This document shows, one piece after another, positions 1,111-10,433 of a DNA stretch of 64,000 bases. The notes beneath the pieces are model-generated. The model did not search any database. It was not told the DNA's origin and was given only the letters and a program-made list of their open reading frames with translations. Each line of letters begins with the position of its first letter. Within the stretch, counting starts at the first letter, position 1. Both the position numbers and the translations under genes were made by a program. This DNA is from a virus. Location of the stretch: IMG/VR virus record IMGVR_UViG_3300047551_001325, positions 1 through 64,000 of that record; one strand, 5' to 3'.

Positions 1111-1414
1111 TGCTCACCTCCTTTGTTGCTTCAAATACTTCTTGAAGTCTAAGATGCTCTATGAATGGGTCCACACACAACAGAAGGTCTGACAACTCTT
1201 TCGTGTCGTAGAAGTACGCAAAATGGTGCGTCACATCCAATCTGAGTGGCTCTTCGTACCAATACCAAGAACTAGCTGGTAGTGTTTGCCCGTCTTTCTC
1301 AACGGAAAAAGACGGAGTTGGCCCGTCGTATCTAACACATACGACGTAACCATCTACTCCAGTAGGGACTCTACACTGCCCCCACGATGAGACTATTTGT
1401 TTTTGTTTCTTCAT
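1070..1414 (-). CDS. hypothetical protein (start MKKQKQ)
   Basis: 3' part of the 186-aa ORF; ATGA overlap with the upstream gene and GGAGGG RBS. Confidence 0.6.
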   Translation of the reverse strand: MKKQKQIVSSWGQCRVPTGVDGYVVCVRYDGPTPSFSVEKDGQTLPASSWYWYEEPLRLDVTHHFAYFYDTKELSDLLLCVDPFIEHLRLQEVFEATKEVSNEERGDSDSDLGD

Positions 1415-1617
1415 TCTCCCTCCAAGTATTCCTGGCCTCGCAAGACCATGCCAACGTACTTGAGTACTACGTCGACTTCCGGTGTTTTGTTGTTGATCCC
1501 AAGGTTTCGCTGAAGCCAGCGGAGGTTGGAATCTTCGGACATGTCTCTTCTTTCCAATGGAACATCCATTGGTATGAGCATCATCCTGATTGCCGCTCTG
1601 ATTGACATTGACGTCAT
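1411..1617 (-). CDS. hypothetical protein
   Basis: ORF overlapping both neighbours by 4 nt. Confidence 0.55.
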   Translation of the reverse strand: MTSMSIRAAIRMMLIPMDVPLERRDMSEDSNLRWLQRNLGINNKTPEVDVVLKYVGMVLRGQEYLEGE

Positions 1618-1952
1618 GATTGTTCTCCATTCATGTAAGCCCACTCGCATTCCATCGAGCAGATCCCAGTGAGTAAGTGCAACTTTTCCTCTGTGGACAT
1701 GTACGAAAGCGTGTCCAAGTATTCCTTGAGTTCGTTCAAGGCTTTGGTGATGTTGTCATCACCTGTCACCCCACCTAAAATTAGCTGGAATTTATCCCCA
1801 ACCTCAGATGGAACTATGTAACTCCACTTATCGTTACACACAGGGCACTTGAACGTACGCAGTACACAAAGTTCTGCGGCCTCTGGAAAGTACGTGTCAT
1901 CCACGACTAGCGTCGTGTCGTGTTCGCTTTCCTTGTGCTTGATGAGTTTCAT
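1614..1952 (-). CDS. hypothetical protein with CxxC pairs (possible Zn binding)
   Basis: CPVC...CSMEC; AAGGAG RBS before MKLIK. Confidence 0.6.
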   Translation of the reverse strand: MKLIKHKESEHDTTLVVDDTYFPEAAELCVLRTFKCPVCNDKWSYIVPSEVGDKFQLILGGVTGDDNITKALNELKEYLDTLSYMSTEEKLHLLTGICSMECEWAYMNGEQS

Positions 1953-2140
1953 TTCTTCTCCTTGTGATAACGCCTCCGACATGGAGGACAGTTGCATGGG
2001 CTTTGCTTGACATTGACTTTCTCTCTGCCGGCTAAAATAAGTTCAGTCAGCAGATGTCCGCAGGAATACTGCGTTTTGTTTACGGTTGCCATTTTTATCC
2101 CTTGAAGTCTCAGCTGAAATTTTCAGCCTGATTTTGAATA

Positions 2141-2187
2141 ACAAAAAAACGCTGGCTTCATATGTACAACATTATGAAACCAGCGTT
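2141..2187 (-). terminator. intrinsic terminator
   Basis: Minus strand AACGCTGGTTTCATA-loop-TATGAAGCCAGCGTT followed by a T run, right after the stop at 2191. Confidence 0.75.
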
Positions 2188-2190
2188 GTT

Positions 2191-2355
2191 TTACTTGTCG
2201 TTGTTCCAGCGGTACTCTCGGTACCACTCACGGAACTCGTTCACTGCCCACGGGATAACCGAGGCGGTAAAGAAGCCAAGCACGAAGAGCCGCCACGGCT
2301 CATCGTATGATAGGACAGCCAGCACGAAGCTGGCAAGGATCATTATCTCCATCAT
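2191..2355 (-). CDS. small membrane protein (two hydrophobic segments)
   Basis: IMILASFVLAVLSY / LFVLGFFTASVIPW. Confidence 0.6.
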   Translation of the reverse strand: MMEIMILASFVLAVLSYDEPWRLFVLGFFTASVIPWAVNEFREWYREYRWNNDK

Positions 2356-2498
2356 TTTTTCACCCCCTTCTTCTTGTCGTTGGCCTTGGTCTTGCACTTC
2401 GCACATAGTTCTGGGTTGTTCCAGGACTTATCTGCGTAGGGCTCGTCAATGTCTGCGGTGTCTTTGTGCCCGCACCGATAGATACATGTGTAAATCAT
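2352..2498 (-). CDS. small Zn-ribbon-like protein (CGH...CxxC)
   Basis: YRCGHKD...LCAKC; AAGGGAG RBS. Confidence 0.6.
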   Translation of the reverse strand: MIYTCIYRCGHKDTADIDEPYADKSWNNPELCAKCKTKANDKKKGVKK

Positions 2499-2632
2499 GT
2501 TGTCTCCCTTGTTTGTTGGTAGGTTGTGGTAGCGGGTTACCTTTCCCAAGGTGTTGTCCCTTGAGGGTCTAACGCAATAAGCGCAGGTAACCCATCTCCC
2601 AGAAAGGACTATGGGCTAGCTACCACAACCAG

Positions 2633-2705
2633 CGCAGTGGGTAGGGGTCGAACCTACAACCTACAGATTAGAAGTCTGTTGCTCTATCCATTGAGCTACC
2701 ACTGC
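2633..2705 (-). tRNA. tRNA-Arg(UCU)
   Basis: Cloverleaf: acceptor GCAGTGG/CCACTGC, D arm TAGCTCAATGGATAGAGC, anticodon loop CTTCTAA, T loop TTCGACC; CCA not encoded. Confidence 0.93.
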
Positions 2706-3233
2706 CGGCCATCGGTGGCCTTATAAGATGTGTATAGTATGCTAATGCACCGTGGGCACCTATTAATGCATTTAGCAGGGACCTCAAACAACTTATACTT
2801 ATAAGTTCCTTTGCTGATAATCAGCTACCCACCCGATGACACGTGGGCAATGATTATTAACGAGTAATCATGTCTCGAGTTGTATAAACCCCATAAACTT
2901 ATATACCACCTAAGAGGCAATGGTGGTTTTCGGTTACCACGGCTCCGTATTGTTCCTACAACCAAAGGAAACTAGAACTTGTGTGGGCCTACACGAAGTA
3001 ACGATGTTATGGGTAAACCCCAAATGGGTTTCGTTACAACATTTACCGTATACTGCCACGGCTGCAACCTGGACAACAAGGAATTGGAGGCACTTGTACC
3101 ATTGCCTTGGTTTATAAACCACTACCATATGGGATACCACCCAATACGTTCCCTTGCGCATCTGCACACTTATGACTCTGCAGTGTCATACACATCGCTG
3201 TGTCTAGGTCGGCTGTACATCACCGCCTAAGAT
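2706..3233 (-). ncRNA. candidate large structured ncRNA
   Basis: No credible ORF; nested long-range helices 2727-2735/3188-3196, 2736-2742/3164-3170, 2883-2890/3109-3116, 2915-2924/3098-3107, plus many local hairpins. Confidence 0.55.
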
Positions 3234-3479
3234 CTAGAGTCCGACATGCGGCTTGTACTTTCGTACAAGATCACCCTTGATAGCAGCATGCCGTTCTGAT
3301 GCCCACATGAAGGCGTTGATCTCCTGCATCACATCGACATACTGAATCCAGCCTCTGTGGGCTTCCGAAAGACGTACAATGGCGTCTTCCAGTTCTTTCT
3401 TTGAGTCCAACTCTGGGAGTTTGGCCTCAAGTTCGTCCATAACACGGACGAACTCTGCAAAAGATACTTTGTTAAGCAT
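3234..3479 (-). CDS. hypothetical helical protein
   Basis: ORF with AAAGGA RBS. Confidence 0.7.
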   Translation of the reverse strand: MLNKVSFAEFVRVMDELEAKLPELDSKKELEDAIVRLSEAHRGWIQYVDVMQEINAFMWASERHAAIKGDLVRKYKPHVGL

Positions 3480-3501
3480 CTTATTCCTTTCTACTAGGGA
3501 G

Positions 3502-3574
3502 TGGGGCGTGTAGGGATCGAACCTACGACCAAGGCATTATGAGTGCCCTGCTCTAACCACTGAGCTAACGCCCC
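3502..3574 (-). tRNA. tRNA with CAU anticodon (elongator Met or lysidine-modified Ile2)
   Basis: Acceptor GGGGCGT/ACGCCCC, TAGCTCAGTGGTTAGAGC, loop CTCATAA, TTCGATC; paired G1-C72, so not an initiator. Confidence 0.92.
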
Positions 3575-3706
3575 TCTTTACAGCGGTAAAGGATTTCACC
3601 GCAGTGTAGGGGAAAAGACTCGCACTTTTCTTCGTAAACAACATTGTGTTGTCACTACCTTACTCTAAGGGAACGATCCCAAAGAATCCCTACTTGGTGA
3701 GTAGTT

Positions 3707-3955
3707 TTACGACATACTCAGGGGGTTGAGACAAAGCCTGGGCTTCGCCACGTAACTTTCGATTCCTTTGATCGCCCGATCAAACAGGCGACGAGCGTTC
3801 TCTTCAAGCCAAGGGGCCGTGTGGCCGAACTCGGCTTGCTTCAACCAAATCATGCAGGTTGTGGCATCCTCCTTGAGGCGCATCCACCCTGAGTGGGTGG
3901 TTGGGGTCTCGCTCTCCAAAAGAACGAGAAACTGGTCGATTTCATCTAGTGTCAT
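3707..3955 (-). CDS. hypothetical protein (MTLDEIDQ...)
   Basis: AGGAGGTG RBS before the ATG. Confidence 0.7.
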   Translation of the reverse strand: MTLDEIDQFLVLLESETPTTHSGWMRLKEDATTCMIWLKQAEFGHTAPWLEENARRLFDRAIKGIESYVAKPRLCLNPLSMS

Positions 3956-4106
3956 GTCACCTCCTAGTGACTCGTAGTTGCGCCCGTCTCTCCGGACTGT
4001 CAAGCCTAGTGATTGGGGCACTTCCCCCGGCTTTCGGGTACTACATGACGCGCACATCCCGAAGCGCGTCCCCAAGAACTACTTGATGATGGACTGGGTT
4101 GACCAG

Positions 4107-4406
4107 TTACCATCCCGTGTATGCTGTTACATCGGTGGTCTGGAAGGCGCGAGATATGCCGTCCTTGACACCAATGAAGAGGGGACGATAATTCGGCCCC
4201 CCAGCACTGACCATCTCTGGGAAGTACGCTTCTTCCACATTTTCGAGAATCAACTGGGAGAATGAGGGGTCGGTCACATCGATCTTCCACAAACTATGTC
4301 CGTGGATGAAGGAGTAGTGGCTTCCACTACGCGTGTGGAACTCCCAAGAGGACCACGTAGTGCGGTTATTCCTCCTGTACAGCTGTACCTCATTGGTCAA
4401 TGACAT
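4107..4406 (-). CDS. hypothetical protein (MSLTNEV...)
   Basis: AAGGAGG RBS. Confidence 0.7.
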   Translation of the reverse strand: MSLTNEVQLYRRNNRTTWSSWEFHTRSGSHYSFIHGHSLWKIDVTDPSFSQLILENVEEAYFPEMVSAGGPNYRPLFIGVKDGISRAFQTTDVTAYTGW

Positions 4407-4663
4407 TTTGGCCTCCTTAGCCAATAAGTGCCCCACACAATGGTGGAAGCAATGGTTGATACAGACAACACGATCTTGCCAATGCGTGGATCAGCCAGTC
4501 TCGCAAGGGTAAAAAAGACGGCGATCAACACGCACTGGCGTATGCCATAGACAAACCTATGTGCTCATAGCAACTACAAATGGGGGGTAAGTAGTGCTAA
4601 AGCAGCAGTCACACTTACACAAGGTTGTGTAACGGCAGCATAGGCCCATACATAGGCACATGT

Positions 4664-4737
4664 TGTGACAATAGTCACATCAATGTGACATTTGTCATAG
4701 GTGAGACAATAGCCACAAGCGTGTGACAATAGTCACA
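4664..4737. promoter_or_regulatory. array of four TGTGA-N6-TCACA (CRP/GlxR-type) palindromic boxes
   Basis: TGTGACAATAGTCACA (4664), TGTGACATTTGTCATA (4684), TGAGACAATAGCCACA (4702), TGTGACAATAGTCACA (4722). Confidence 0.65.
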
Positions 4738-4865
4738 TAGAGCATCTAAACTGGACGGCGCGCCGTTTGCGACGCTATCCGGTCCAACCAGACGCAAGGA
4801 AGCATGGTTGCGTCACCTTGCCTCTACCCTAGGCAACGGGATTTCTCAGCCGGATTTCGGGCAAC

Positions 4866-10343: not shown

Positions 10344-10417
10344 GCCGGATGATGCGTCCGGTTGACGCAAGGTGTCTTATAAACACCCGTAGACGGGTTC
10401 AACTCCCGTATCCGGCA
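10344..10417 (+). tRNA. tRNA-Ile(UAU)
   Basis: GCCGGAT/ATCCGGC acceptor, TGCG/CGCA D stem, GGTGT-CTTATAA-ACACC, ACGGG-TTCAACT-CCCGT, A73; atypical G8/U14. Confidence 0.82.
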
Positions 10418-10433
10418 CTGCTACAATTGTTAG

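Follow-up and report, generated by a model that had tools for sequence, protein, structure and literature searches.

A question raised by the left end of the virus record IMGVR_UViG_3300047551_001325 is what occupies positions 2706–3233, between a tRNA-Arg gene and the nearest open reading frame (ORF) upstream of it. The window analysed here is the first 64 kb of this 73.5-kb IMG/VR record, which is about 81% complete by estimate. The contig encodes terminase, portal, major head and tail sheath proteins, and its genes to the left of about 5600 lie on the minus strand. A preliminary description, made from the letters alone, had proposed that the stretch holds a large, ornate non-coding RNA, either a member of a class such as GOLLD or ROOL or a new one. 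We find that the stretch is conserved and non-coding in three clades of contigs, that its helices are kept by compensation, that it folds on the minus strand and that records from RNA libraries span nearly all of it. We are confident that it specifies a structured RNA which is real, new and expressed and is released beside a tRNA. The best explanation of the whole, which we hold to be somewhat better than even, is a free-standing, highly structured phage RNA of about 520 nucleotides (nt) and, as its most speculative step, a structural particle like those of GOLLD and ROOL. The elements of the locus are as follows.

2706–3225, minus strand: the large RNA, about 520 nt in its approximate mature form, recognised by homologues, a covarying fold, the lack of a conserved ORF and RNA-library records
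2632–2705, minus strand: tRNA-Arg(UCU), found by ARAGORN and by Rfam (74.2 bits); as read from the sequence, CCA is not encoded
3234–3479, minus strand: ORF of 81 amino acids, whose stop codon bounds the ORF-poor stretch
3501–3574, minus strand: tRNA-Met, found by ARAGORN and Rfam, 800 nt upstream of tRNA-Arg

The 528 bases between tRNA-Arg and the stop codon of the 81-amino-acid ORF are indeed poor in ORFs and contain no convincing gene, in keeping with the claim that some 530 bp of a packed operon lack a credible ORF. Homologues could be found for them. The 198-amino-acid protein of a neighbouring gene, used as bait, led to one syntenic IMG/VR contig, L002, in which an ORF-free stretch of 600 nt immediately upstream of a tRNA-Arg(UCU) aligns with the stretch in the window; the neighbouring proteins of 81 and 186 amino acids found no relatives in IMG/VR. 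A 16-mer of an invariant block matched six stretches in IMG/VR (four true, two by chance), and a two-block pattern matched 18 in the metagenomes of the Joint Genome Institute (seven true, 11 by chance). Neither three more block patterns nor a scan of 185,579 species genomes gave a further real homologue. The large RNA is thereby present in 11 other contigs, some of which may be duplicate filings of one assembly (L008 and L023 both measure 75,482 nt). There are four distinct sequences, in three clades.

Sequence 1: the window and L025; L016 differs by one base
Sequence 2: L015, about 95% identical to the window
Sequence 3: L002, L010 and L012
Sequence 4: L006, L007 and L019, with L008 and L023 as truncated copies

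In every homologous contig that extends that far, tRNA-Arg(UCU) directly follows the large RNA. Among GenBank phages, 531 records matched in the distant mode of blastn, all of them only at the two tRNAs, with at most 8% of the query covered. Alignment, blastn or nhmmer exposed a number of candidates as chance pattern matches, which were dropped: L004, L005, L011, L013, L014, L017, L018, L020, L021, L022, L024, L026 and L027. L113, a metagenome-assembled genome from the gut, was dropped since its similarity is confined to the 28-nt pattern region. L114 to L119 were dropped as chance; the gap range of the scan that gave them was too narrow for trailers of the window type and the L006 type.

Conservation divides the stretch into two domains, as follows.

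2985–3237, minus strand: conserved 5′ domain, with about 77–79% identity between clades; the basis of model R1
3204–3237, minus strand: conserved 5′ block, containing an invariant 23-mer (3204–3226), the candidate hairpin H1 and the palindrome UGUACA (3214–3219); it occurs once in the window
2930–2985, minus strand: hypervariable linker between the two conserved domains, with a 20-nt indel between clades

The 3′ domain has a conserved core and a variable periphery. The linker holds 15 of the 28 columns in which the window and L015 differ.

The conservation does not follow a reading frame. The preliminary description had named an ORF of 77 amino acids, 2934–3167, as the feature whose conservation would speak for a gene. 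Stops and frameshifts break it in L002 and L006, that is, in two clades, and the mismatches within it are spread evenly over the three codon positions (16/24/23 and 23/22/23). On its RNA strand, L006 has no open frame of at least 40 codons. Judged by these comparisons, the stretch 2706–3233 is best read as an RNA and not as a protein gene.

The conserved property is instead a fold. RNAalifold, applied to the four sequences, gave 102 pairs, 24 of them compensatory. A curated structure has 18 helices and 96 pairs, and 98.4% of its 381 alignment cells are paired. The covariation among homologues that had been suggested as a check is present: both sides have changed in 27 of the 96 pairs, against 0–5 in controls with the partners slid by one to three columns, and the covariation score of the curated structure was reached by none of 500 shuffles. 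The elements that carry this fold are listed here.

3172–3189, minus strand: hairpin with stem 3185–3189/3172–3176, in which four of five pairs have two-sided changes; the loop hexamer CUGCAG (3178–3183) is invariant
2850–2871, minus strand: first of two twin hairpins of the 3′ domain (2865–2871/2850–2856), four of seven pairs two-sided
2826–2849, minus strand: second twin hairpin (2843–2849/2826–2832), two of seven pairs two-sided
2800–2805/2720–2725, minus strand: medium-range helix of the 3′ domain, four of six pairs two-sided
2788–2790/2729–2731, minus strand: short extension of the medium-range helix, one of three pairs two-sided
2993–3042, minus strand: long hairpin of the 5′ domain (3031–3037/2998–3004), three of seven pairs two-sided
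3085–3127, minus strand: three-way junction of the 5′ domain
3045–3062, minus strand: hairpin GCCGUG/UACGGU of the 5′ domain

The medium-range helix illustrates the pattern. It reads CUUAUA/UAUAAG in the window, and UCAACA/UGUUGU and GUAAUA/UGUUAC in the other clades. Likewise, one junction pair is U-A, A-U and G-C across the three clades. A finer comparison is that of the window with its near relative L015. Only one of the 28 differing columns falls among the 192 paired columns of the 617 in the alignment (8.7 expected, P = 4e-4); with the linker excluded, one of 13 differences does so (4.4 expected, P = 0.033).

The fold also has a strand. Read as the minus strand, 375 of its 381 cells pair, 33 of these as G-U; read as the plus strand, only 344 would. 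The 33 G-U cells restrict the fold to the minus strand, the one that had been favoured from a single G-U pair. The comparison of folding energy with dinucleotide shuffles, also suggested beforehand, gave a z of −2.76 or −2.12 on the minus strand (1 of 100 shuffles as good for the former) and hardly a signal on the plus strand (z −1.27, equalled by 5 of 100). On the RNA strand, the homologues L002 and L006 gave z values of −3.15 and −2.04.

The long-range architecture that had been drawn for the stretch fared less well. As complements, all five of the listed pairs are there, four of them as perfect Watson-Crick repeats at exactly these positions: 2915–2924/3098–3107 (10 nt), 2727–2735/3188–3196 (9 nt), 2883–2890/3109–3116 (8 nt) and 2806–2813/2963–2970 (8 nt). 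The fifth, 2736–2742/3164–3170, pairs at seven of seven positions, one of them a G-U. The stretch contains seven perfect inverted repeats of at least 8 nt against a mean of 2.08 in 300 dinucleotide shuffles, only one of which reached seven; the counts at 9 nt or more (two against 0.57) and at 10 nt or more (one against 0.13) are not significant alone. Among the homologues, the helices mostly dissolve. The stem said to close some 470 nt (2727–2735/3188–3196) pairs in 71% of alignment cells, with a single compensatory cell, and the adjoining helix (2736–2742/3164–3170) pairs in 78.6% of cells, with no compensatory change. The 10-bp helix keeps four of its ten pairs in the clades of L002 and L006, and the suggested pseudoknot, 2806–2813/2963–2970, keeps four of eight even in the 95%-identical L015. 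In the helix 2883–2890/3109–3116, an invariant 6-bp core is kept, and the full 8 bp and any covariation are not. Apart from the one cell of the closing stem, the four-sequence alignment shows no compensatory change in these five helices. Three of the six local hairpins that had been named (3171–3190, 2850–2871 and 2828–2847) coincide with covarying helices.

Other pairings, most of them long-range, emerge from the alignment, as follows.

CGGUG 3221–3225/CACCG 2713–2717, minus strand: candidate terminal helix; both strands are invariant, and it never varies
3222–3230/3204–3213, minus strand: candidate hairpin H1, with 97.2% of cells paired and no two-sided change
3204–3213/3064–3071, minus strand: long-range complement, kept, invariant or with one-sided change
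3117–3126/2846–2855, minus strand: long-range complement of 10 bp, kept in the same manner
3217–3225/2834–2842, minus strand: long-range complement of 9 bp, kept in the same manner

Folds predicted from one sequence at a time show the terminal helix for L002 and L006 but not for the window. The invariant long-range complements may be tertiary contacts or alternative states. As it stands in the alignment, the conserved fold is mostly one of local and medium-range helices, together with invariant long-range complements that four sequences cannot test.

The stretch is also recovered from RNA libraries. Among the public runs listed, 14 DNA runs from at least 11 studies of freshwater or drinking water contain 77–100% of the sampled words of 2480–3300, and six metatranscriptome runs contain 53–62% of them. 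The assembled contigs of four RNA-library runs, from four studies, were placed on positions 1201–4800 of the window. In all four, records from natural lake and river samples lie inside the stretch, five in total and 233–507 nt long.

2720–3219: record of 500 nt, placed completely, with zero mismatches
2733–3215: record of 507 nt, 483 nt of it on the stretch, with a 24-nt loose end
2780–3215: record of 436 nt, placed completely
2757–2996 and 2989–3221: records of 240 and 233 nt, placed completely

The only variant among them is A>T at 2859, by our reckoning in a hairpin loop, at column 421, where L015 also differs. The loose end at 2733, from run X16, resembles an Illumina adapter; we do not read it as an RNA end. 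In the same four runs, neither the flanks (1201–2640 and 3241–4800) nor the segment 2522–2630 past the tRNA has RNA-library cover, the exceptions being a 38-nt piece at 1526–1563 and some short tRNA-like pieces from other organisms; these holes are not counted as evidence.

The upper ends of the contigs fall at 3215–3221 in four studies, with no loose ends. This is a weak hint that they mark a real RNA end, and would place the 5′ end of the RNA at 3221 or a few bases upstream. The positions correspond to the loop of candidate hairpin H1, within the invariant 23-mer. The 5′ block 3204–3237 is either a processing or start site or a 5′ terminal structure. The lower ends, at 2720–2780, stop short of the tRNA, and no contig joins the large RNA to it. 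Since cover usually falls away at ends, a 3′ end at the RNase P site, 2706, is compatible with this. Searches for other signals at the borders were negative. Three sigma-70-type promoter-like sites were found against 2.8 expected, none of them positioned for the large RNA; no intrinsic terminator bounding it was found; and inspection by eye upstream of 3221 found no −10 element common to all clades.

These observations suggest the following pathway. Transcription would run leftward with the early genes and yield one precursor shared with tRNA-Arg(UCU). RNase P frees the 3′ end of any tRNA leader, and a cut by the host enzyme at the 5′ end of the tRNA would leave the large RNA with a predicted 3′ end at 2706. 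Its 5′ end would be made at or just upstream of 3221, in the invariant 23-nt block, by a cut or by the start of transcription. The released RNA would be stable and would accumulate. In the most speculative step, it would serve as an RNA-only structural particle, perhaps joined to copies of itself through the invariant hexamers CUGCAG, in a loop, and UGUACA, near the 5′ end. The calculated energies of the self-duplexes are −7.7 kcal/mol for CUGCAG and −4.8 kcal/mol for UGUACA, and the CUGCAG loop is invariant though four of the five pairs of its stem have changed. Self-assembly through these two hexamers, suggested by analogy with known RNA cages, is possible, if doubtful.

Several points weigh against a single, free-standing particle. 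With four sequences in three clades, each compensatory pair amounts to two or three independent contrasts, and a statistic of the R-scape type is impossible. The structure was scored on the very sequences from which it was derived, so the contrast with the slid controls is inflated. Among the four sequences, no helix joining the 5′ domain to the 3′ domain has a two-sided change. Several of the long-range complements exclude one another or exclude covarying hairpins. The invariant palindromic hexamers number two in 50 invariant windows against 0.78 expected (P = 0.18), which is not significant. Assembled contigs give neither the strand, nor the level, nor the true ends of an RNA. Finally, the absence of the large RNA from 40 related records, described next, including a complete and close relative, implies that it is a dispensable accessory element.

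The related records were collected through the capsid protein, which has more than 598 relatives in IMG/VR; 40 of 80 retained records were searched, those on the longest contigs, and seven of them have a completeness of 94% or more. Model R1, of the 5′ domain, recovers 12 of 12 known copies as a control and found nothing at E ≤ 1 in the 40 records. Model R2, of the 3′ core, was built on the twin hairpins (2826–2871) from a 77-column core alignment (A8), since the MAFFT alignment of the 3′ domain (A7) was too poor over its last 150 columns; it gave no true match in the same records. Its one candidate, of 16.8 bits in G014, lies inside an ORF of 611 amino acids and was rejected. The complete relative G001, whose capsid protein is 93% identical, has tRNA-Met, three mechanically called ORFs and tRNA-Arg in this region; the non-coding DNA that precedes tRNA-Arg measures about 105 nt. 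Its slot upstream of tRNA-Arg has no homology to R1. A side observation is that this slot (L111, 850–1494) folds with a z of −3.89, from 20 shuffles only, and that its mechanical ORFs have 74–89 amino acids; the slot may be coding, or may hold a different RNA in the same position. The carriers of the large RNA thus form a narrow lineage of tailed freshwater phages that are uncultured. The nearest cultured capsid protein, at 61.7%, is that of Streptomyces phage BRock, and an actinobacterial host is plausible.

Downstream of the tRNA, two further elements accompany the large RNA, as follows.

2522–2630, minus strand: structured trailer, which starts 2 nt past tRNA-Arg, with a closing stem of 12 bp as well as inner arms
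2352–2498, minus strand: gene for a basic protein of 48 amino acids with the motif CxxxC...CxxC, which in each of the three clades directly follows the large RNA, the tRNA and the trailer and is about 50% identical between them

The trailer has 35 predicted pairs, six of them compensatory, and its closing stem covaries in the three clades. A reduced trailer follows tRNA-Arg in G001 (L111, 1571–1660; model R3, 26.4 bits), with a wholly different stem sequence. Since G001 has a trailer without the large RNA, the trailer is a separate module tied to the tRNA and not a part of the large RNA. It could stabilise the 5′ terminus of the downstream mRNA after excision of the tRNA, or act as a 3′ processing signal. 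The 48-amino-acid protein matches nothing in Pfam or PHROG, and a search at E ≤ 1, of low power for so short a protein, did not find it in five complete relatives that lack the large RNA. The small proteins encoded in the flanks have no Pfam match; against PHROG they have a single weak one, to a family whose function is unknown.

Some observations concern the neighbourhood. Between window 2462–3281 and L025 4030–4849, RNA and tRNA are identical at 650 of 650 positions, the adjoining downstream protein gene has only 86% amino acid identity, and the homologue of an upstream ORF of 122 amino acids about 40%; the contrast looks like mosaicism. This upstream ORF (3707–4075, minus strand) starts with TTG, and its first 40 codons are interrupted by stops in the equivalents of L025 and L015. 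Its real start is probably the internal ATG, and 3956–4075 may be non-coding. The final codons of the 81-amino-acid ORF, just upstream of the large RNA, contain a hairpin of 7 bp capped by a GAAA tetraloop (CTTGTAC-GAAA-GTACAAG; 3252–3269, minus strand), and no T-run follows it. At 10344–10418, on the plus strand, ARAGORN calls a tRNA-Ile (anticodon TAT), for which the Rfam tRNA model is silent at gathering level.

Other explanations of the large RNA must be set against that of a structural particle. It may be a decoy or scaffold that sequesters or organises a host or phage protein, perhaps the 48-amino-acid CxxxC...CxxC protein, in the manner of 6S or OLE RNA. The invariant single-stranded and loop segments of the RNA would suit such a role, as would the presence of that protein gene after RNA and tRNA in all three clades, with none found in five relatives that lack the RNA; OLE RNA works with protein partners (bioRxiv 10.1101/2024.12.08.627333). 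The co-occurrence may nevertheless be mere linkage in one inherited block, the protein belongs to no Pfam or PHROG family and is so short that its absence elsewhere is read from a search of low power, and we regard the proposal as fairly unlikely. A second view, that the leader of the tRNA operon is a chain of independent small structured modules, takes its strength from the short span of the two-sided helices (at most 86 nt), from the hypervariable linker that divides the stretch and from the trailer, which truly is an independent module. It is improbable in the face of the RNA-library records, as the 500-nt record and the one with 483 nt on the stretch cross both domains and the linker unbroken. 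Moreover, the 5′ domain has always been found with the 3′ core, and neither turned up alone in the 40 related records (the weak R2 match sits in the 611-amino-acid ORF), and invariant complements connect both ends and both domains.

It is more improbable again that the stretch is a cis-acting leader that only aids the production of tRNA-Arg, for instance by presenting the precursor to RNase P, and is functionless once released. As such a leader would be, the RNA is joined to tRNA-Arg(UCU) wherever a contig is long enough to show it, with an invariant CCACCGAUG 4 nt upstream of the tRNA; yet in a close relative the same tRNA is preceded by a mere 105 nt or so. Leaders normally decay once released, whereas the RNA-library records from four studies run nearly end to end, and no placed contig joins the RNA to the tRNA. 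We know of no tRNA leader whose needs approach 520 nt and 18 conserved helices. A decayed or unusual protein gene, or a DNA element such as an origin or packaging site, would account for the mechanical ORFs of 77–84 amino acids on both strands and for inverted repeats of the kind typical of DNA origins. We give this almost no credence: the ORFs are broken in other clades, the substitutions lack codon periodicity, the 33 G-U cells make the fold strand-specific, unlike DNA hairpins, and the stretch was recovered from RNA libraries. A free-standing structured RNA, possibly acting as a structural particle, is the explanation favoured here.

As to known families, Rfam 15 (4227 families) at gathering level finds only the two tRNAs. 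At E ≤ 10, the window, L002 and L006 give scattered and inconsistent matches (HOTAIR_3, SNORA62, OrzO-P, RsaA). No Rfam model of 6S RNA or of a known self-cleaving ribozyme matches these three sequences, and the group-II-D1D4-1 model (RF01998) finds nothing in the record; the earlier statement, made by eye, that no group I or II intron, tmRNA or RNase P core is present agrees with the Rfam search. Across the entire 73.5-kb record, the GOLLD model (RF02032) gives nothing at E ≤ 10. The same holds for the ROOL model (RF03087), a result that is weak alone since the control genomes are equally silent. With no Rfam match and both these models negative, the large RNA is a new, unrelated family of a known kind. 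That is, membership of GOLLD or ROOL falls away from the original suggestion, and a large structured minus-strand RNA of a new class stands. An invariant 15-mer of the RNA, on either strand or as RNA, is absent from the papers searched, and the listings and abstracts found on ornate or non-coding phage RNAs in metatranscriptomes and in freshwater actinophages contain nothing on it.

Large, intricately folded RNAs of bacteria and phages are rare, and almost every class that has been studied revealed unusual biochemistry. For GOLLD and ROOL, cage structures have been solved, and the function is still unknown. A third unrelated RNA of like size and setting strengthens the case that the position beside a tRNA is functional and not accidental. 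It would also offer a compact object of 520 nt on which ideas common to these RNAs, namely release by RNase P, self-assembly and a tRNA-related cargo, could be approached. The large RNA is unusual in its environmental evidence of expression and is limited by its narrow phylogenetic base; since its sequence is present in DNA runs of at least 11 studies of freshwater and drinking water, it may be a molecule that is common in lakes. In the furthest form of the proposal, it would found a third unrelated class, a protein-free symmetric multimer excised by RNase P and very abundant in infected freshwater bacteria. We consider this rather doubtful. If true, RNA cages beside tRNAs would be a recurrent, convergently evolved phage device.

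Comparison with known systems helps to place the large RNA. In eukaryotes, the 3′ end of the long non-coding RNA MALAT1 is made when RNase P cuts at the tRNA-like fold of mascRNA, directly downstream. Here a genuine tRNA in a phage would take that place, and the analogy is one of mechanism only. RNAC and RNAD of phage T4 are much smaller, under 150 nt. They are stable non-tRNA RNAs from a phage tRNA region, of unknown function (PMC3014915), as the large RNA would be. Abundant large non-coding RNAs near tRNAs are described for phage K, and one, unplaced, for ICP1 (PMC9241854, PMC7567579).

The closest comparisons are with GOLLD and ROOL. Both are large RNAs of phages and prophages, often near tRNAs (PMC5737381), and both form homo-oligomeric RNA-only cages, partly through symmetric palindromic kissing loops (bioRxiv 10.1101/2024.12.08.627333). 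GOLLD is often longer than 800 nt, with a conserved 3′ part and a variable 5′ part, whereas the large RNA has about 520 nt and is better conserved at its 5′ side (bioRxiv 10.1101/2024.12.08.627333). GOLLD is likewise large and ornate, was first seen in lake metagenomes, and lies near tRNAs in phages and prophages, sometimes with a tRNA embedded; it accumulates during lysis and has self-interacting palindromic kissing loops. The large RNA shares this setting in that it abuts tRNA-Arg in a phage contig. The helices of ROOL do not correspond to those of the large RNA. ROOL is described from three bacterial phyla and forms cages, whereas the large RNA is seen only in one narrow freshwater phage lineage and a cage made of it would be conjectural. 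ROOL is abundant where it has been measured and averages 581 nt, close to the roughly 520 nt found here, and both are phage-borne near tRNAs (PMC5737381, bioRxiv 10.1101/2024.12.08.627333). The many junctions, few invariant nucleotides and variable middle linker given for ROOL have their counterparts in the 18 helices, three-way junction and linker of the large RNA.

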